A stretch of DNA of 64,000 nt from Sedimentisphaerales bacterium (lineage in GTDB: Bacteria > Planctomycetota > Phycisphaerae > Sedimentisphaerales > UBA12454), in contig JBEKRK010000001.1 in assembly GCA_049518795.1 (NCBI GenBank), positions 270,477 to 334,476 of the forward strand, given 5' to 3'. A program made the position numbers and the translations under genes. Of the stretch, positions 1-9,255 are shown in pieces (the first letter of the stretch is position 1; each line of letters starts with the position of its first letter). The notes under the pieces were generated by a model, which did no database searches, was not told the DNA's origin, and saw only the letters and a list, made by a program, of their open reading frames with translations.

Positions 1-30
1 ATATATCGTTAAACTACAGGAGAACAAATT

Positions 31-1218
31 ATGGATAATAATCAGCCGTCAAATGAGAAGCCTGCAAACGTAAAACCTTCAGATATTCCGCCCGTTTCTA
101 ATACAAAATTTGAAACATACATCAAAATTGTTGAGTTCGGTGCGATATTTATCGCTGTTGTTTATTTCTTTGGCTTTATTATCGTTAACACTTACCTGCT
201 TAAATATGGGATTAAGACATTCTCGCTTATAAAATATGAATATGTTGCAGCAGGAGTGGCATTTCTTCTTTGTGTGGCCATTGTGGCAATCCCATCGTTC
301 CTGATAATAAAATGGTTTTCTGATAATTTTAGTAAATTGACGGTATCATCGCTGAAAAAACAAGATGTCGTTTGGTTTTTGGGTCGAGTGATTATAATAC
401 TCTCATTGTCAGCACTTCCTTTTATACTCGTGTTCCATATGTTTTTCCCCGCAGAAAATCATGATTGGAAGGAATATTATTATTGGTATATAGGCATACT
501 TGTATGCATCCTTGTAATTTTTACAATAGTGTGGATTAGGTTTACAAAGCCGGATTTGAGTGATAAAAGTATCAATAAATTTCGGATCAGTGCGGTGTTA
601 TTTTGTTTTGTTGCATTGTGCGTTGCGGTTTACATCTTTTGTGTATTTATCTCTTTTGACCCTCGGAGTTTCATATCATTTAGTTTAGCTATTTTTACTG
701 CAACATATGTCTCTCATATTACCATAAAAATACGAAACTCAACCATAACACAAGAACGCATGAAAACATGGTTCGTAGCGTTTGGAGGATATTATGTCCC
801 AGCTCTTGTCCTTATTGCCGCAGTTGGTTTCGGTCGTGGTGTATACGATAAAATGTCGTATGTAGGTGGAAGTAGGATGAAAAATGCTGTCATTTATATG
901 AAAAATAAAGACGATGTGTTAAAAGGTCGTATTATTGAGCGTACGGATGCAACTCTATTTATTAAAGACCCCTGTGACAGTAATGGTGTAGTAGAAATAT
1001 TCTTAGAGGATGTTGAAAAAATCTTATACGGCATAGACAATAATTCCATCAACCGGAGCGAGGTTAAAGCCATGCAACAAGCTGTCGATATTAACTCCTG
1101 TGAGGGTAATAGTGCAGTAGAGATATTCTTAAAGGCTAAAGATAATAATTCAATTAATCTTAGCGATATTAAAGCTGTCCAGCGGGGTACCAAAGAGGCA
1201 AATGATTTTAATGAATAA
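31..1218 (+). CDS. hypothetical polytopic membrane protein with duplicated C-terminal motif
   Basis: 395-aa ORF with AGGAG 8 nt upstream of the ATG. Multiple hydrophobic segments span the first ~270 aa. The soluble tail holds two copies of a ~25-30-aa unit (VVEIFLEDVEK..DNNSINRSEVKAMQ / AVEIFLKAKDNNSINLSDIKAVQ). No family recognised. Confidence 0.55.
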   Translation: MDNNQPSNEKPANVKPSDIPPVSNTKFETYIKIVEFGAIFIAVVYFFGFIIVNTYLLKYGIKTFSLIKYEYVAAGVAFLLCVAIVAIPSFLIIKWFSDNFSKLTVSSLKKQDVVWFLGRVIIILSLSALPFILVFHMFFPAENHDWKEYYYWYIGILVCILVIFTIVWIRFTKPDLSDKSINKFRISAVLFCFVALCVAVYIFCVFISFDPRSFISFSLAIFTATYVSHITIKIRNSTITQERMKTWFVAFGGYYVPALVLIAAVGFGRGVYDKMSYVGGSRMKNAVIYMKNKDDVLKGRIIERTDATLFIKDPCDSNGVVEIFLEDVEKILYGIDNNSINRSEVKAMQQAVDINSCEGNSAVEIFLKAKDNNSINLSDIKAVQRGTKEANDFNE

Positions 1219-1375
1219 ACCGAAATAACCGGGGAATTTTGCTTGTTTTTGATCTACTTTTTAGGGCTATTAAACTTTTTGCATTGATTGTTTAAAGTGA
1301 ACGGCAAAGTTAAGACATTTTTCTGATTTGTTGTTTTGCTCTCCTTCAGTGAAATACCTGAAATGGTCTTTTCTT

Positions 1376-2179
1376 TCATTCTAATCGAAACATTTCTATT
1401 GAATTATATTGCCAAGAATCTTTTGGGACAGGTCGCAAATCAATTATCAATTTATAAATATCAACTGAAAGATGATTTACTCTTTTAATAAAATCCCTAT
1501 TTAAATTATCCGGTGCAGGAGCAATGTCGTTCGGGTTTTTATTCCTATCCTCAAATACGTTAGAGTTTAAAGACCATTGTGAATATAAAAAATGTTCCAT
1601 TTTATTTCTTACCCACCATACCCTTTTTATTAGACTTTTATTTGTCGAATAAAAACTATCTATTTTCGAAGCCTCGTTAGGGTAAGCCAATTTTAAATAT
1701 TTGAAAATATTTTTTATATTTAAGGAAGTTCCTTTAATATTATCCTTTTTTATTAGCTCAATATCTTGAGAATTTAAATTACCGGAATGAAGTTCTAACA
1801 GCCGGCGCCCATGATTTTTTACAGCATCGTGATACGCCTTCACTATCGGTAGTAAAATGTGAGGTCTTTTCTCGTTCTCGTTTATTCCATTTGAATCCTG
1901 CCATGCTTCTTCAAGTAAATCAACTGGATAATTACTAAACGATCTCACTTCTATCTCATCTCCATTCCCATAACGGTAATATTCACAAGATGACGATTCT
2001 GCAAATGCGTATGAATTTTCACATACATTTAATTTATATTCTTTCTCGCAGACTGGGCAGGTATATCGGGATAGTCTCCCCCCATAAGGTAGATCTAATT
2101 CATTATTACATTTATTGCATAACAATGAAATTTCCCAATTACCATAATCTTTATCATCTTCACTTTTACCCATTATCAA
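1376..2179 (-). CDS. zinc-ribbon + HEPN-like (Rx4H) protein; candidate defence effector
   Basis: 267-aa ORF. N-terminal CxxC-x16-CxxC (CNKCN...CPVCE). C-terminal WWVRNKMEHF gives R191-x4-H196, the HEPN RNase signature. Co-directional with, and 74 nt downstream of, the gene at 2254..2895. Motif-based call only. Confidence 0.5.
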   Translation of the reverse strand: MIMGKSEDDKDYGNWEISLLCNKCNNELDLPYGGRLSRYTCPVCEKEYKLNVCENSYAFAESSSCEYYRYGNGDEIEVRSFSNYPVDLLEEAWQDSNGINENEKRPHILLPIVKAYHDAVKNHGRRLLELHSGNLNSQDIELIKKDNIKGTSLNIKNIFKYLKLAYPNEASKIDSFYSTNKSLIKRVWWVRNKMEHFLYSQWSLNSNVFEDRNKNPNDIAPAPDNLNRDFIKRVNHLSVDIYKLIIDLRPVPKDSWQYNSIEMFRLE

Positions 2180-2253
2180 GCTTCTTTAATCTATTATCTA
2201 CTCCATTGCGGTTTATTTTTGCCCGGCTGAATTTTTATTAATATTTTTTTATT

Positions 2254-2895
2254 TCATGTCATAGAAGTTGCTACATCCTCAATAATTTTCATGTACTCGA
2301 GAAGATAATAATATCCACTGATTCGCCGACTTGGGAGCAATAGAAACTCTCCCGGTATAGGAGTCCTTAGTGGCAGTGTTGCATAGTGCGTTTTTACCAC
2401 TTTTTTGAAGTCTTCCAATGATTCTTTGGACATGTGGGCTATATGGTTTCTAACCTTCTTCAGTTCTCTCAACTGTTCAAGGTACATTGTTATAGTTGCC
2501 TTTATAGGATATCCGTCTTTTAAATATGTCTCAGAGCGTTCCAAAAGAATATCAGGGCTGCTCCAGTCAAGAAAAGGCATTGATGATTGGACTAGTTCTT
2601 CGGCGTGTTGAATACTTTGTGGTCGCAAATGAGACTGAACGAGCTTTCTCTTGCTTGATGGTACGCCACAGCAGTAAAGTAGGAACACATTACGCAGGAA
2701 CTGTTCATATGCTCTAAAGGCTGCAAAAAATACCGTCTCCGTCAATAAATACATTTGTGTTTTGGTAAACCTACGTGAACCTTTCTTTTTTGCCAAAGAG
2801 GAGGTAAACAACTCTTGATTTTGCTTATCGATGGCTCGCAAAACTCTGAGTTTCTGCTTGAAATAAGATAAACAACCAAGAGGCTTAGACTTCAT
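2254..2895 (-). CDS. HEPN-like nuclease (RNxxAH motif; resembles MAE_28990/RiboL-PSP-type HEPN families)
   Basis: 213-aa ORF with KKVRNHIAHMSKE (R149-x4-H154). Its ATG overlaps the stop of the upstream DUF262 gene (ATGA at 2892..2895 on the minus strand), implying translational coupling. Confidence 0.55.
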   Translation of the reverse strand: MKSKPLGCLSYFKQKLRVLRAIDKQNQELFTSSLAKKKGSRRFTKTQMYLLTETVFFAAFRAYEQFLRNVFLLYCCGVPSSKRKLVQSHLRPQSIQHAEELVQSSMPFLDWSSPDILLERSETYLKDGYPIKATITMYLEQLRELKKVRNHIAHMSKESLEDFKKVVKTHYATLPLRTPIPGEFLLLPSRRISGYYYLLEYMKIIEDVATSMT

Positions 2896-3968
2896 AGCAA
2901 GCTTTGGCCCAGAGAAAATCGGATTTTTTTGCAGACAAATTCTGCTCTTTTAATACGCGACGCGGTGTCTGTTGTTCCTCGTCGAGACCGCATAATGAAG
3001 TTCTTGTAATCTTTTGGAGCATCTGGGTTATCAATATCTTCAGCAACTTTGTCATAAGTCGCACTTATATCATCAAGGCAGACCCGAAGTTTTCCTATTA
3101 CCTTCTGAGAAAGCTTAGATCTGAATGATTTGTTAATTCCGTCAAGCCTATACAAACAGTGAGCTATCGACGTGAAGAGTGTGTAAAATAGATGGATACG
3201 CGACCAGTTTGTTCCTCGTATTTCCTCAGGCGAGTAGATTTCACCAATGTATGACATTGTAGTGTCAAATTTCTGCTTTGCTTTCTCAAGTGACCCTTGC
3301 TCGTCTTCGTATTTTCTGTAGAATTGCTCAAGGGACTTGTTTGTCTGAACACCACCAATAAGTGACATAAGCATATCACCAGCAAGTTCCGCTTCTGCCA
3401 TTCGTGTCACTTTTTCTTTTGTAAGCACCTTAGCGCGAAGGAAATAGTCTACATACTTTAAACCTAGTTCATAGGCTGCTTGCTTAAAGTATCCTAAATA
3501 CCCGGCATTCAATTTTTCCTGTTTATTAAGTACGACCGTATAGGAGTTTATTCTTGCGAATATGTCCAAAAGGTCTTGATATGTCATGTTGTAAAGAACG
3601 TCAACTCCAAGTTCGTACTGCAGAAAGTCTTTCTGCTGTTGTGATGACATTGTAGTATAGCGTTTTCCCGCCAATTTTTTGTTGTGTGCTTTGGAGATGG
3701 CAAAATCTTCATTTATGAATTCTAATACTGCGCGGAGTCTTTGCTGACCGTCTACTACTGTACGAATTGTTCGTGAACCATCAAGGTGTTGGCTGATTAA
3801 TATCTTGGGAATTGGTCGTCCTCGGACAATAGAATCAATAAGATAAGACTTTGCCTTTTCAGACCAGACTTCACGTCGCTGGAAATCTGGGCTAAGTTCA
3901 AGAAGTTCATTTTTATGCCATTCAAAAAAGTCAGCAATACTATATGCCCTTGTGTCAAAATTCTTCAT
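2892..3968 (-). CDS. DUF262 (ParB/Srx-like, GmrSD N-terminal type) protein without a DUF1524/HNH nuclease domain
   Basis: 358-aa ORF. SPDFQRREVWSEKAKSYLIDSIVRGRPIPKI and VVDGQQRL (DGQQR) are hallmark DUF262 motifs. The C-terminal ~200 aa look helical and show no His-Me finger motif. Confidence 0.8.
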   Translation of the reverse strand: MKNFDTRAYSIADFFEWHKNELLELSPDFQRREVWSEKAKSYLIDSIVRGRPIPKILISQHLDGSRTIRTVVDGQQRLRAVLEFINEDFAISKAHNKKLAGKRYTTMSSQQQKDFLQYELGVDVLYNMTYQDLLDIFARINSYTVVLNKQEKLNAGYLGYFKQAAYELGLKYVDYFLRAKVLTKEKVTRMAEAELAGDMLMSLIGGVQTNKSLEQFYRKYEDEQGSLEKAKQKFDTTMSYIGEIYSPEEIRGTNWSRIHLFYTLFTSIAHCLYRLDGINKSFRSKLSQKVIGKLRVCLDDISATYDKVAEDIDNPDAPKDYKNFIMRSRRGTTDTASRIKRAEFVCKKIRFSLGQSLL

Positions 3969-4286
3969 GATATTCGCCCCTTTTTGATAGTTAACAAATA
4001 TGATCGTACCATTACTTTTATTCTCCGTTCATTTATTATTGGATAGATTATATGCAATAAACCCAGCCAATTCAAACAAATAATCTCTTCCTTTTCTGTA
4101 GAAAAGACGTAACCGAATAACGTTTGCCGTAACGAGCTGCGTACTTGTCTGTTCGTAGCCTTCTCGTCCTCCGTAGTCCCCCTGTTCTTGCTTTCGCCTG
4201 CCCCCGCGACTTCCATCGCAAGATGGAGCGGTGGGCAAGAAAGTATAGGGGGACGAAGGATGGACGGCGGAACCCTTTTATCCCGC

Positions 4287-4364
4287 GATAACCGATAACC
4301 ATTCACTGATAACCGTTCACCAATAACCGATAACTGTAAACCAATAACTGTAAACTGTTAACTG
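4287..4364. repeat. array of ~8 (G/A)ATAAC(C/T)G-type octamer repeats
   Basis: Read directly: gataaccgataaccattcactgataaccgttcaccaataaccgataactgtaaaccaataactgtaaactgttaactg. Confidence 0.7.
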
Positions 4365-4372
4365 ATCTGATA

Positions 4373-4504
4373 CCCAAACCGTTGCCGAAGCCCAAACTCA
4401 ACCTTTTTCAGCCACTTGGCCATTCTTTACCAACCAAACTCAAACCATTGCCAAAACCCCAATCCTTTTCAGCCGCTCGGCCATTCTCTACTTTGATTCT
4501 CTAC
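4373..4504. repeat. two tandem ~58-nt units, each ending in an inverted, degenerate copy of a class II tRNA 5' half
   Basis: Unit 1 is 4373..4430 and unit 2 is 4434..4491. On the minus strand they read GTAAAGAATGGCCAAGTGGCTGAAAAAGG and GTAGAGAATGGCCGAGCGGCTGAAAAGG. Compare the tRNA-Ser 5' end GGAGAGGTGGCCGAGTGGCTGAAGG at 4580. ATTCTCTAC is duplicated at 4483 and 4496. Confidence 0.55.
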
Positions 4505-4579
4505 TTTTTTAATCTACTTGCAATAATTGTTATTTGGGTGTAAGTTAATAGAAAAGATGTTTTTGGGACGGACGAATAT

Positions 4580-4670
4580 GGAGAGGTGGCCGAGTGGCTG
4601 AAGGCACCAGTTTGCTAAACTGTCCAGTGGGTAATAACCCGCTGCGCGAGTTCGAATCTCGCCCTCTCCG
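4580..4670 (+). tRNA. tRNA-Ser (anticodon GCT)
   Basis: Acceptor GGAGAGG/CCTCTCC plus discriminator G. D-arm GCCGAGTGGCTGAAGGC. Anticodon loop TTGCTAA. Long variable arm. T-arm GCGAGTTCGAATCTCGC. No encoded CCA. A T-run follows. Confidence 0.9.
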
Positions 4671-4811
4671 TTTTTTATGCTATGCCGTATTAGGGTTTTT
4701 ACAGGCAACTCGTCATTTTTTTGCTTTTAACTAAAACGAGAATTGAACAGTCAAAAACAAAAAGAACAATTCCTAAGTTAAATAAAAAAATTCAATATTA
4801 AAGGATATAAA

Positions 4812-6691: not shown

Positions 6692-7129
6692 ATGAAAGCT
6701 AAGAAAACAGTTGTCAGAGCCGGCTTCACATTGGTCGAGCTTGCGGTGGTCATCGTGATCATCGGCGTGCTGGCTGCTTTCGCAGTGCCGAAGTTCAGCG
6801 CTTCGGTAGAACGGTCGAAAGCTGCTGAAGCCTTCAACTACCTGTCAGCCATAGAGGCTGCCCAGGAGCGTTTCCATGCCAGACAAGGCACCTATGCTAG
6901 CAACCTTGCAGACCTCGATGTTCAATTTGCCCAACCGAAGTATTTCGATGTTGGCGAAGTTGCAGGCGACGATCTTGAGACTGGCTGGAGTTTGACTCTT
7001 ACGCGCAAGGGTGCTTCAGGCGGTTACGGTCTGTACACGGTAGTCTTCACGCAGGACGGCTTCGATACAGCAAACAGCACGATTGCTACTGATGAGAAAT
7101 GTGTTGCTATCAACCCGATGCAGACCTAA
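6692..7129 (+). CDS. type IV pilin / T2SS pseudopilin-like major subunit, paralogue 1
   Basis: 145 aa. The prepilin leader ends ...VRAG|FTLVELAVVIVIIGVLAAFAVPKF (G-1, F+1, E+5). AAGGAG lies 6 nt upstream of the ATG. Confidence 0.85.
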   Translation: MKAKKTVVRAGFTLVELAVVIVIIGVLAAFAVPKFSASVERSKAAEAFNYLSAIEAAQERFHARQGTYASNLADLDVQFAQPKYFDVGEVAGDDLETGWSLTLTRKGASGGYGLYTVVFTQDGFDTANSTIATDEKCVAINPMQT

Positions 7130-7180: not shown

Positions 7181-7612
7181 ATGAAAAAGATGATTACAAA
7201 AGGTGGATTTACACTGGTCGAGCTTGCAGTGGTTATAGTAATCATCGGTGTGCTGGCAGCTTTCGCAGTGCCGAAGTTCAGCGCTTCGGTAGAACGGTCG
7301 AAAGCTGCTGAAGCCTTCAACTACCTGTCAGCCATAGAGGCTGCCCAGGAGCGTTACCATGCCAAGCAAGGCACGTATGCTAACCAACTTGCCGCCCTTG
7401 ATATTCAGTTTTCCGAGCCAAAGTATTTCACTGTTGGCGAAGTTCAGGGGGATAGTCTCGAGACAGGATGGAGACTGACTCTTACACGCAAGGGTGCTTC
7501 AGGCGGTTACGGCGAATACACGGTAACGTTCACGCAGGACGGCTTCGATACTGAAAACAGCACGATTGCTACTGATGAGAAATGTGTTGCTATCAACCCG
7601 ATGCAGACGTAA
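7181..7612 (+). CDS. type IV pilin / T2SS pseudopilin-like major subunit, paralogue 2
   Basis: 143 aa, leader MKKMITKGG|FTLVELAVVIVIIGVLAAF. Shares a 97-nt identical run (7259..7355 = 6776..6872) and a 53-nt identical 3' run with paralogue 1. Confidence 0.85.
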   Translation: MKKMITKGGFTLVELAVVIVIIGVLAAFAVPKFSASVERSKAAEAFNYLSAIEAAQERYHAKQGTYANQLAALDIQFSEPKYFTVGEVQGDSLETGWRLTLTRKGASGGYGEYTVTFTQDGFDTENSTIATDEKCVAINPMQT

Positions 7613-8604: not shown

Positions 8605-8992
8605 AAATCGTTAATTGATAACTATCAATCAACGTGAGGGAGAGCGGCAGAATTTAAAAATTAAAATTGAAGATTGAAAATTTGCAGAATTGAGCAAAAG
8701 AGCACATGTCATCAGTGCACAAATTATTGGTTATCCGTTATCAGATAAGCAGGACCTATAAAAATTTTTTTAAAAAATCAGCGTCCTTTTTGCGAAAAAT
8801 TATATACATCGTCTAAAAAAAATCGGTGCAAACAAGTTTATTTTTTCGGACTAAAACAATCGTTTATTGACGCAAATAGACATTTTAAGGTCTTATAAGA
8901 ATTTAATTTAAGGGTAAGCAGTCCTTTTTTTTGAGGTTATAAGTATCATGTTAAGTCATTTTTTTAATGTGTCGAATTTATCCGTAACAGTC

Positions 8993-9020
8993 CATACTGA
9001 CAATAGCTTATGTCAGTATG
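8993..9020. promoter_or_regulatory. perfect 10-bp inverted repeat upstream of the secretion/pilus operon
   Basis: CATACTGACA-atagctta-TGTCAGTATG, ending 38 nt before the mini-pilin start. Confidence 0.35.
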
Positions 9021-9057
9021 CCTATGTGGTGAAATATTGACTATTCGGAGATAGAAA

Positions 9058-9255
9058 TTGGATAGAACGGTTGTCAAAGCCGGCTTCACTCTCGTGGAGC
9101 TTGCGGTGGTCATCGTGATCATCGGCGCGCTGGCGGCTTTCGCTATGCCGAGATTCCGCGCCCAGAACGGTTTCAATTCAACAAACAGCACAATAGCCAA
9201 CGAAGAACATATTGCTATCAACCCGATGCAAACAGAGTCAGGAGGAGGAAGATGA
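9058..9255 (+). CDS. internally deleted 'mini-pilin' (65 aa) or pilin pseudogene
   Basis: TTG start. MDRTVVKAG|FTLVELAVVIVIIGALAAFAMPRF is joined in frame to the pilin C-terminal block ...NSTNSTIANEEHIAINPMQT. A 31-nt run is identical to pilin 1. The pilin stop is lost, and the 6-codon extension supplies the AGGAGG RBS of the next gene. Confidence 0.45.
   Translation: MDRTVVKAGFTLVELAVVIVIIGALAAFAMPRFRAQNGFNSTNSTIANEEHIAINPMQTESGGGR

Follow-up and report, generated by a model that had tools for sequence, protein, structure and literature searches.

The locus analyzed here lies in a stretch of 64,000 nucleotides (the window) from a 930-kb contig of a Sedimentisphaerales metagenome-assembled genome (MAG; Planctomycetota). 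It consists of three co-directional genes on the minus strand, numbered here in the order in which they are read. Gene 1 (2892–3968) encodes a 358-aa protein with a DUF262 (ParB-like nucleoside triphosphatase, NTPase) domain and a C-terminal ParBDB-type domain and is the predicted sensor. Gene 2 (2254–2895) encodes an all-helical 213-aa protein, assigned by its sequence to the RiboL-PSP-like clade of HEPN proteins, and is the predicted RNase effector. Its start overlaps the stop codon of gene 1 in an ATGA tetranucleotide (2892–2895, minus strand; ctATGAag in context), which suggests translational coupling. Gene 3 (1376–2179) follows after a gap of 74 nucleotides (2180–2253) and encodes a 267-aa protein with a Cys4 zinc ribbon, a small β domain, and a helical domain with an HEPN-like Rx4H motif. 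Exact matches in NCBI carry the locus tags ABSE89_01240 (gene 2) and ABSE89_01235 (gene 3). Gene 3 probably starts at the ATG at position 2173, giving 265 aa, because the NCBI call has this length and begins two codons later. An initial annotation of the window had combined the three genes into one candidate defense operon, and the reading frames, the ATGA overlap, and the motifs that it quoted are all present. Comparison across genomes divides the locus differently: genes 1 and 2 are a strictly linked pair, and gene 3 is a separate unit.

Gene 1 carries the motifs FQRREVW, DGQQR, and FARIN and matched the Pfam family GmrSD_N (DUF262) with E = 3.6e-21 over residues 15–157. DUF1524 gave no Pfam match in any of the three proteins, and the description of gene 1 in the initial annotation as a DUF262 protein lacking this nuclease domain was confirmed. 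Among the PADLOC models, NsnA gave E = 2.5e-35 over residues 5–345 (profile positions 47–378 of 385). PD-T4-2_A followed with a lower score (E = 2.5e-26, residues 10–241), REase_II was matched with E = 3.9e-10, and the HEC-05/06 and SspE-type models gave only weak N-terminal matches. NsnA-type proteins are described as a ParB-DUF262 NTPase/sensor domain joined to a DNA-binding domain, ParBDB, with the motifs QRxxxW, DGxQR, and FxxxN (PMC12065111). By the role assigned to it there, the DGQQR motif of gene 1 (residues 73–77; 3738–3752, minus strand) is the predicted NTP-binding center. Conservation was examined in 48 gene 1 homologs drawn from loci that also carry gene 2, and residues Q30, R31, W35, D73–R77, F137, R139, and N141 were each found in 48 of 48. 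Because the core residues of QRxxxW, DGQQR, and FxxxN are invariant, the gene 1 family looks catalytically competent.

The gene 2 family comprises at least 174 proteins, all annotated as hypothetical and without a Pfam domain. Its AlphaFold2 (AF2) model is confident and all-helical (predicted local distance difference test, pLDDT, 94), and the predicted catalytic motif RNHIAH (R149–H154; 2434–2451, minus strand) forms the C-terminal end of helix 139–154. In HEPN proteins helix 3 ends in the Rx4-6H motif (HEPN survey, PMC3710099); gene 2 likewise has Rx4-6H at a helix end, an all-helical core, and a conserved acidic residue (E53) in an N-terminal helix. A bare Rx4H occurred in about 28% of composition-matched shuffles of the gene 2 or gene 3 protein. 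The motif alone is therefore near chance, and it is the conservation within the family that makes it meaningful: R149, N150, H154, T52, and E53 are invariant across 46 diverse gene 2 members (43–82% identity). When these 46 members were scanned individually, PF18735 (HEPN_RiboL-PSP) was matched weakly in 27 (best E = 0.0011) and PF18737 (HEPN_MAE_28990) in 8, with further weak matches to other HEPN families, CARF-HEPN, and Cas13a models; HEPN-MNT was among the weak matches of the fold search. A relative on a Pseudomonas plasmid with 24% identity to gene 2 matched PF18735 over most of the profile (E = 6.8e-5). In hhalign the gene 2 profile aligned to this protein with a probability of 97.4% (E = 1e-11, 154 columns), and its RNAIAH was placed on RNHIAH. 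Taken by sequence, the case for gene 2 as an HEPN protein of the RiboL-PSP-like clade is strong; the fold search did not confirm it. A tblastn search of phage genomes for gene 2 gave no match.

The linkage of genes 1 and 2 was assessed in a pattern-seeded scan with one genome per species, which returned 53 loci encoding gene 2 relatives, 51 of them testable, i.e. with upstream sequence. The loci are spread over at least 10 phyla, with representatives in Planctomycetota, Ignavibacteriota, Nitrospirota, Patescibacteria, Pseudomonadota, Actinomycetota, Bacteroidota, Chloroflexota, Deinococcota, Acidobacteriota, Verrucomicrobiota, and Armatimonadota. A gene 1 homolog was found directly upstream of the gene 2 homolog and on the same strand in 51 of 51 testable loci, and the estimated spacing was between −40 and +20 nucleotides in 50 of them. 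The 4-nucleotide overlap is retained in the close relatives L071 and L073. Contigs from metagenomes and a conjugative plasmid of Glutamicibacter carry the pair as well. The initial annotation had proposed a synteny check of all three genes across genomes; it was borne out for genes 1 and 2 (51/51) and failed for gene 3 (0/53).

The surroundings of the pair are variable. When 332 neighboring open reading frames were clustered, no recurrent third gene emerged, the largest family occurring in 3 of 53 loci. The 97 nearest neighbors are heterogeneous and include some restriction-modification (R-M) genes, integrases, one relaxase, and one transposase, and many loci are chromosomal with housekeeping neighbors. 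Individual loci adjoin a type III R-M system (L001), HigBA (L003), or Fic/VbhA and recombinases (L009). The closest relatives with known surroundings lack gene 3 and have other genes after the pair: a TPR protein in L073 (gene 1 88% identical), an HNH-type nuclease in L071 (gene 1 83% identical), where an EVE-NmeDI gene precedes the pair, and a NUDIX gene in L007 (gene 2 83% identical). Genes 1 and 2 are strictly linked and probably form a self-contained, horizontally mobile two-gene module.

In L071 (1804–5484) the upstream gene combines EVE and NmeDI_C domains and resembles a fusion of a modified-base reader and a nuclease, and the downstream flank encodes a 226-aa protein whose sequence includes an HNH-like motif (HFDHD...N...H). 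Together these genes make up a tight grouping of the modification-dependent-restriction-like kind. A further cassette of two genes was seen at a distance of 2–3 kb or less from the pair in three unrelated genomes (L016, 768–3283; L020, 5769–8098; L058, 5774–7928). It encodes a distant DUF262 protein of about 389 aa (E = 4e-6 to 4e-8 to gene 1) and a partner of about 444 aa and is possibly another DUF262-based system.

Gene 3 belongs to a rare family. A word-index search returned 7 homologs, and an exhaustive HMMER profile search found 28 clusters among 1.84 billion representatives, nearly all of about 250 aa. Viral contigs yielded no relative, and the scan of metagenome contigs a single one. 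In 21 members with 23–63% identity, C41, C44, R191, K193, H196, and W202 are invariant, and conservation reaches at least 90% at C21, C24, and E195. The cysteines form the C21xxC24-x16-C41xxC44 ribbon (2048–2119, minus strand), which weakly matched zinc-ribbon families of Pfam as well as the Rpo12/RPA12 ribbons of RNA polymerases. The AF2 model (pLDDT 88) contains an N-terminal ribbon with a small β sheet (38–82) and a C-terminal helical domain. The conserved Rx4H motif RNKMEH (R191–H196; 1592–1609, minus strand) forms the C-terminal end of helix 167–196, which fits the helix-end position in HEPN proteins. From the conservation of the motif and its position in the model, an HEPN-like nature of gene 3 is plausible. 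The initial annotation had called both gene 2 and gene 3 HEPN proteins on the basis of their Rx4H motifs. The motif residues are indeed conserved in the homologs of both (R149/H154 and R191/H196), and the HEPN assignment itself holds by sequence for gene 2; for gene 3 it is plausible and was confirmed by no profile or fold search. A 30-nucleotide direct repeat with 70% identity connects positions 1671–1700 and 2498–2527. It corresponds to YLKxxYPxxA segments of gene 3 (residues 161–170) and gene 2 (residues 124–133), the same segments that hhalign aligns ahead of both RNxxxH motifs. Among the hits to the gene 3 motif region, protein P0152 (2,018 aa) accounted for nine matches; it is a surface protein built from GWYT...NHTLYAHW repeats, and the matches were discarded as spurious.

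No gene 3 homolog was detected in any of the 53 loci carrying the pair. Conversely, genes 1 and 2 are absent from all four other contexts in which gene 3 was found. In L004/L005 the gene 3 homolog lies a few genes from an integrase and is followed by a zinc-ribbon/MuF-like gene, in L006 it stands among DUF4365 and REase genes, and in L066 it adjoins RadC/JAB and SHOCT-type genes. The fourth context (L067 and L068) was read from translated sequences, from which the domain names given here are taken. In L067 (1–1998; Logan SRR15311596 contig) the homolog lies between the C terminus of a DUF3883-like nuclease, with which it overlaps by 4 nucleotides, and a DUF1156-type DNA methylase, which starts 14 nucleotides downstream; the context in L068 is the same. 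On this reading the gene is embedded in an R-M/DISARM-like system. Base composition also sets gene 3 apart, with a GC content of 0.318 compared with 0.399 for both gene 1 and gene 2, and a GC content at third codon positions (GC3) of 0.25 compared with 0.37–0.39. Because of the lack of co-occurrence, the other contexts without genes 1 and 2, and the different base composition, gene 3 is a separate unit outside the pair.

The gene that follows the homolog in L006 (3182–3751) encodes a 189-aa protein with an RNAFAH motif and a weak HEPN_Apea match (E = 0.054). By hhalign this protein has no relationship to gene 2 (probability 0.7%). Farther on, DUF4365, REase-ARP/PDDEXK_13, and DUF2130 genes form a defense-island-like stretch. 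A conserved downstream partner of gene 3 was considered and rejected, the downstream genes of L004 and L006 being mutually unrelated and absent from the window.

The initial annotation had also placed the genes in a region far more AT-rich than the rest of the window and bounded on the right by repeat arrays and a tRNA-Ser gene. The right boundary was recovered: tRNA-Ser(GCT) lies at 4579–4671 on the plus strand (ARAGORN; Rfam tRNA, 55.9 bits), on the right-hand side of the islet and outside the system, and tandem repeats occupy 4286–4364 and 4483–4507. The dip in GC content is real and moderate (0.33–0.39 over positions 1–4000 compared with 0.435 for the whole window); "far more" overstates it, since 1-kb bins elsewhere are just as low. 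Integration at tRNA-Ser was considered and set aside: no direct repeat turned up for the 3′ end of the tRNA, and no left boundary is reached within the window. An Rfam scan for an RNA component, such as an AbiF-like RNA antitoxin, returned the tRNA only.

Several further features of the window were noted. Upstream of tRNA-Ser, two tandem direct repeats of about 60 nucleotides occupy 4374–4492. Within the first, 16 nucleotides show 94% complementarity to the tRNA in its D-arm region (4587–4602; TTCAGCCACTTGGCCA compared with TGGCCGAGTGGCTGAA), and a similar stretch, TTCAGCCGCTCGGCCA, was seen by eye in the second. The repeats look like degenerate inverted fragments of the tRNA 5′ half and are possibly scars of a past rearrangement or integration. 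The array at 4286–4364, in the intergenic region between gene 1 and the tRNA gene, consists of about 7 copies of GATAAC/AATAAC heptads with a period of 7/14/21 and follows directly on a GC-rich segment (4120–4290). It had no Rfam match and could represent binding sites of a regulator. A 395-aa multi-pass membrane protein is encoded convergently with gene 3 in the same low-GC islet (31–1218, plus strand; GC content 0.356). It has an internal C-terminal repeat (VVEIFLEDVEKILYGIDNNSINRSEVKAMQ / AVEIFLKAKDNNSINLSDIKAVQ) and no match in Pfam, PADLOC, or NCBIfam. Beyond the tRNA gene, tandem paralogs of 145 and 143 aa (6692–7129 and 7181–7612, plus strand) share prepilin-type N termini (GFTLVELAVVIVIIGVLAA) and near-identical C termini and look like pseudopilin or type IV pilin-like genes. 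A prepilin-like N-terminal signal recurs antisense near 8964–9221.

We consider it likely that the locus contains two independent candidate anti-phage units adjacent to each other in a small low-GC islet, unit A consisting of genes 1 and 2 with the architecture of the defense system PD-T4-2, and unit B consisting of gene 3. The existence of the genes, the conservation of their motifs, the strict linkage of genes 1 and 2, the independence of gene 3, and the assignment of gene 2 to its HEPN clade were obtained directly; the trigger, every biochemical step, and the defense function itself we infer. In unit A, gene 1 would bind phage DNA, possibly modified, through its ParB-DUF262 and ParBDB domains, by analogy with GmrSD, BrxU, and SspE. 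Binding or hydrolysis of NTP by gene 1 would act as the switch, upon which gene 1 would release or activate gene 2 in the form of an HEPN dimer. RNA (tRNA, rRNA, or mRNA) would then be cut at the composite Rx4H site of this dimer, so that translation would stop and the phage would fail to replicate. The sensor and RNase with abortive-infection-like logic that the initial annotation had envisaged is the best reading for genes 1 and 2, without the heterodimer of HEPN proteins that it had drawn between gene 2 and gene 3. Gene 3 would act alone, with the Cys4 ribbon as the probable sensing or assembly domain and the Rx4H helical domain most likely as an HEPN-like RNase, by analogy with RAZR/PD-T7-4.

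A number of results weigh against the division into these two units or against the identities given to them. The scan of the gap between genes 2 and 3 revealed no convincing terminator, the only signal being a weak promoter-like site (2200–2172), and local read-through from gene 2 into gene 3, i.e. co-transcription, is therefore possible. The profiles of the gene 2 and gene 3 families matched each other over about 40 columns (YLKxxYP...RNxxxH) with E values of about 0.01–0.02 and a probability below 4%. The helical domain of gene 3 was linked to no HEPN family in searches of Pfam, PADLOC, NCBIfam, and PDB sequences. For gene 2, all Pfam HEPN matches of the family fall below the gathering threshold. 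The likeness of gene 2 to PD-T4-2B was drawn from matches to hidden Markov models (HMMs) and from published HHpred families, and the PADLOC model PD-T4-2_B matches neither gene 2 nor the 46 family members at E ≤ 1, so gene 2 is at best a distant relative of PD-T4-2B.

The first two of these results would also fit a single three-gene system in which the DUF262 sensor controls a heterodimeric RNase made of the gene 2 and gene 3 HEPN proteins, as the initial annotation had proposed. The genes are co-directional across a short gap without a detectable terminator, RNxxxH stands at a helix end in both proteins, their local profile similarity superposes the motif regions and coincides with the segments of the 30-nucleotide repeat, and the gene 3 homolog of L006 likewise has a small RNAFAH protein after it. 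We nevertheless give this reading hardly any credence. Gene 3 is missing from all 53 pair loci, and the close relatives have NUDIX, HNH nuclease, or TPR genes in its place; its own four other contexts lack genes 1 and 2, its GC3 differs from theirs, the RNAFAH protein of L006 is unrelated to gene 2, and HEPN proteins are generally described as homodimers. The three-gene operon of the initial annotation was thus abandoned. The repeat and the profile match together are suggestive, not significant; they may be a weak trace of shared ancestry of the helical cores, or chance. A bolder variant, in which this lineage has recruited gene 3 as an additional effector expressed by read-through from the DUF262-HEPN pair, is less likely than a family of single-gene RNases represented by gene 3. 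Gene 3 could also be no HEPN RNase at all but a zinc-ribbon nucleic-acid-binding or regulatory protein whose R/K/E/H cluster has another function. In favor of this, profile and Foldseek searches, the latter without any significant result in PDB and BFVD, matched no HEPN family or structure, and Rx4H alone is common by chance. We think it unlikely, if a real possibility, given the invariance of R191, K193, and H196 in 21 sequences of 23–63% identity and their position, where they close a long helix in the manner of HEPN proteins. The contexts of the homologs are defense or mobile-element neighborhoods, and an architecture of zinc ribbon and HEPN domain has been validated in RAZR.

For the pair itself, two other functions were weighed against the preferred sensor-RNase system. 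In one, genes 1 and 2 form a toxin-antitoxin-like addiction module, with the HEPN protein as toxin and the DUF262 protein as its neutralizer, that stabilizes mobile elements and in which defense is secondary or absent. The tight coupling by overlapping genes and the frequent location on plasmids and near integrases, insertion sequence elements, and toxin-antitoxin loci would agree with it, and HEPN toxins are well known from such modules (HEPN-MNT, among the weak fold matches). The partner, however, has 358 aa, resembles an enzyme, and combines a DNA-binding domain with NTPase residues that never vary, which is atypical for a small antitoxin or MNT; many of the loci are chromosomal with housekeeping neighbors, and PD-T4-2, which has the same architecture, protects against T4 in its native host. 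An addiction module therefore appears improbable to us. In the other, gene 1 is a ParB-like DNase in a type IV-like restriction system and gene 2 a non-catalytic or regulatory partner with an HEPN fold, so that DNA would be restricted directly. A survey of 2013 used the term "ParB nuclease" and placed it with methylases and R-M genes, R-M genes adjoin the pair in some loci, and gene 1 matched the REase_II model of PADLOC (E = 3.9e-10). Yet the characterized DUF262 enzymes cleave through DUF1524, which is absent here, and gene 2 keeps a complete RNxxxH together with the invariant acidic E53, which argues for an active RNase. We regard direct restriction by gene 1 as quite improbable.

The DUF262-HEPN architecture is already known and has been validated as PD-T4-2, and the initial annotation's statement that the locus matches no named system had to be withdrawn: PD-T4-2 has the same architecture, a ParB-HEPN operon was published in 2013, and NCBI annotates equivalent pairs on plasmids. 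Defense-system annotation tools that require both components would probably overlook a large set of PD-T4-2-like systems, because gene 2 has no Pfam domain and is missed by the PD-T4-2_B model. No published mechanism for PD-T4-2 was found in the literature, and the compact pair, with clear predicted catalytic residues in both proteins, offers a comparative data set on how a ParB-like NTPase may control an HEPN RNase. For gene 3, whose family has no HMM match in Pfam, PADLOC, or NCBIfam, we tentatively suggest an unrecognized, rare family of single-gene anti-phage RNases in which, as in RAZR, an N-terminal zinc ribbon that senses a phage component would be coupled to a C-terminal HEPN-like catalytic domain, of an origin independent of DUF4145. 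By analogy it would be a rare, unannotated candidate for membership among the few zinc-ribbon-HEPN immune proteins, for which the first mechanism (RAZR) was published in 2026. The locus also illustrates that two genes with HEPN motifs side by side in one genome need not share a system; synteny across genomes separated gene 2 and gene 3 cleanly.

With GmrSD, BrxU, and SspE, gene 1 shares the DUF262 NTPase/sensor domain with QRxxxW, DGQQR, and FxxxN. It differs from them in having no DUF1524 His-Me nuclease and, instead, a separate HEPN effector that is probably RNA-targeting. Another DUF262 protein was seen on E. coli IncF plasmids (L070, 2992–4764; about 500 records), where a 590-aa protein lies beside pemIK; it occurs on hundreds of conjugative plasmids of E. 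coli, Shigella, and Klebsiella. It aligns with gene 1 in the DUF262 domain only (29% identity over 45% of the query), and its length suggests a GmrSD-like enzyme. Gene 1 also agrees with the definition of NsnA (ParB-DUF262 plus ParBDB) in the Menshen system (NsnABC). Menshen was rejected as an identification because it requires both NsnB and NsnC (PMC12065111): the pair has neither the NsnB ABC-ATPase/DUF3696 gene, with no ATPase match downstream, nor the NsnC inPIN-effector gene, and it has an HEPN partner instead. HEPN-MNT systems differ in that no nucleotidyltransferase (MNT) gene adjoins gene 2 or gene 3 in the window.

The counterpart of gene 3 is RAZR, which is PD-T7-4 ("Zn finger-HEPN"), a single-gene abortive-infection RNase composed of a Cys4 ribbon and a DUF4145-HEPN domain and activated by assembly around phage ring proteins (Nature 2026). 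Both combine an N-terminal Cys4 ribbon with a helical domain at the C terminus in which R and H are conserved, and both are single-gene units found in defense contexts. In contrast to RAZR, gene 3 and its 21 relatives gave no match to PF13643 (DUF4145) or PD-T7-4 at E ≤ 1, the motif is Rx4H instead of R146...H154 (Rx7H), and gene 3 is longer (267 aa compared with about 220 aa), with an extra β segment (47–82). Furthermore, RAZR is described as widespread, whereas the gene 3 family is rare (28 clusters).

The pair is closest to two previously described groups. The survey of 2013 (PMC3710099) listed "RiboL-PSP-HEPN: operon with ParB" and "MAE_28990: operon with ParB nuclease and DNA methylase." Pairs of DUF262 proteins with MAE_28990/MAE_18760 HEPN-like nucleases (Anantharaman et al. 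2013) share the tight or overlapping order of DUF262 followed by HEPN. They are annotated by NCBI on E. coli IncF and Klebsiella plasmids (L012 and L069), their protein sizes (353 + 211 and 380 + 227 aa) are almost the same as those of genes 1 and 2, and their DUF262 partners match the same PADLOC models as gene 1. Their HEPN proteins belong to a different clade, aligning with the gene 2 profile in hhalign over the motif region only (probability about 2%), and some of the pairs are accompanied by a DNA methyltransferase. PD-T4-2 from E. coli ECOR65 is listed as "DUF262, HEPN," with two coding sequences in 1,540 bp. It protects against T4, and its deletion from ECOR65 restores plaquing of the phage (Vassallo et al. 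2022). HHpred identified PD-T4-2A as DUF262/DndB/ParBc, and PD-T4-2B as HEPN_RiboL-PSP (97.8%) followed by HEPN_MAE_28990 (96.9%) (Vassallo et al. 2022). Like the pair described here, PD-T4-2 consists of a DUF262 protein without DUF1524 and a small HEPN gene immediately downstream; the same two HEPN families lead for PD-T4-2B and for the gene 2 family, and the total sizes are similar (1,540 bp compared with 1,715 bp). The differences, apart from the missing match to PD-T4-2_B, are that gene 1 scores better on the NsnA model and that the host is a Sedimentisphaerales MAG and not E. coli. A search of E. coli plasmids for PD-T4-2 found L012, L069, and L070, none of which the PD-T4-2_B model recognizes, and the model also misses the HEPN partners that NCBI annotates in E. 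coli and Klebsiella. As it fails on these partners as well as on gene 2 and its family, the model is narrow and an automated PD-T4-2 call is unlikely. By architecture and family matches, genes 1 and 2 are probably a divergent, widespread member of the PD-T4-2 type that current HMM sets would probably miss.

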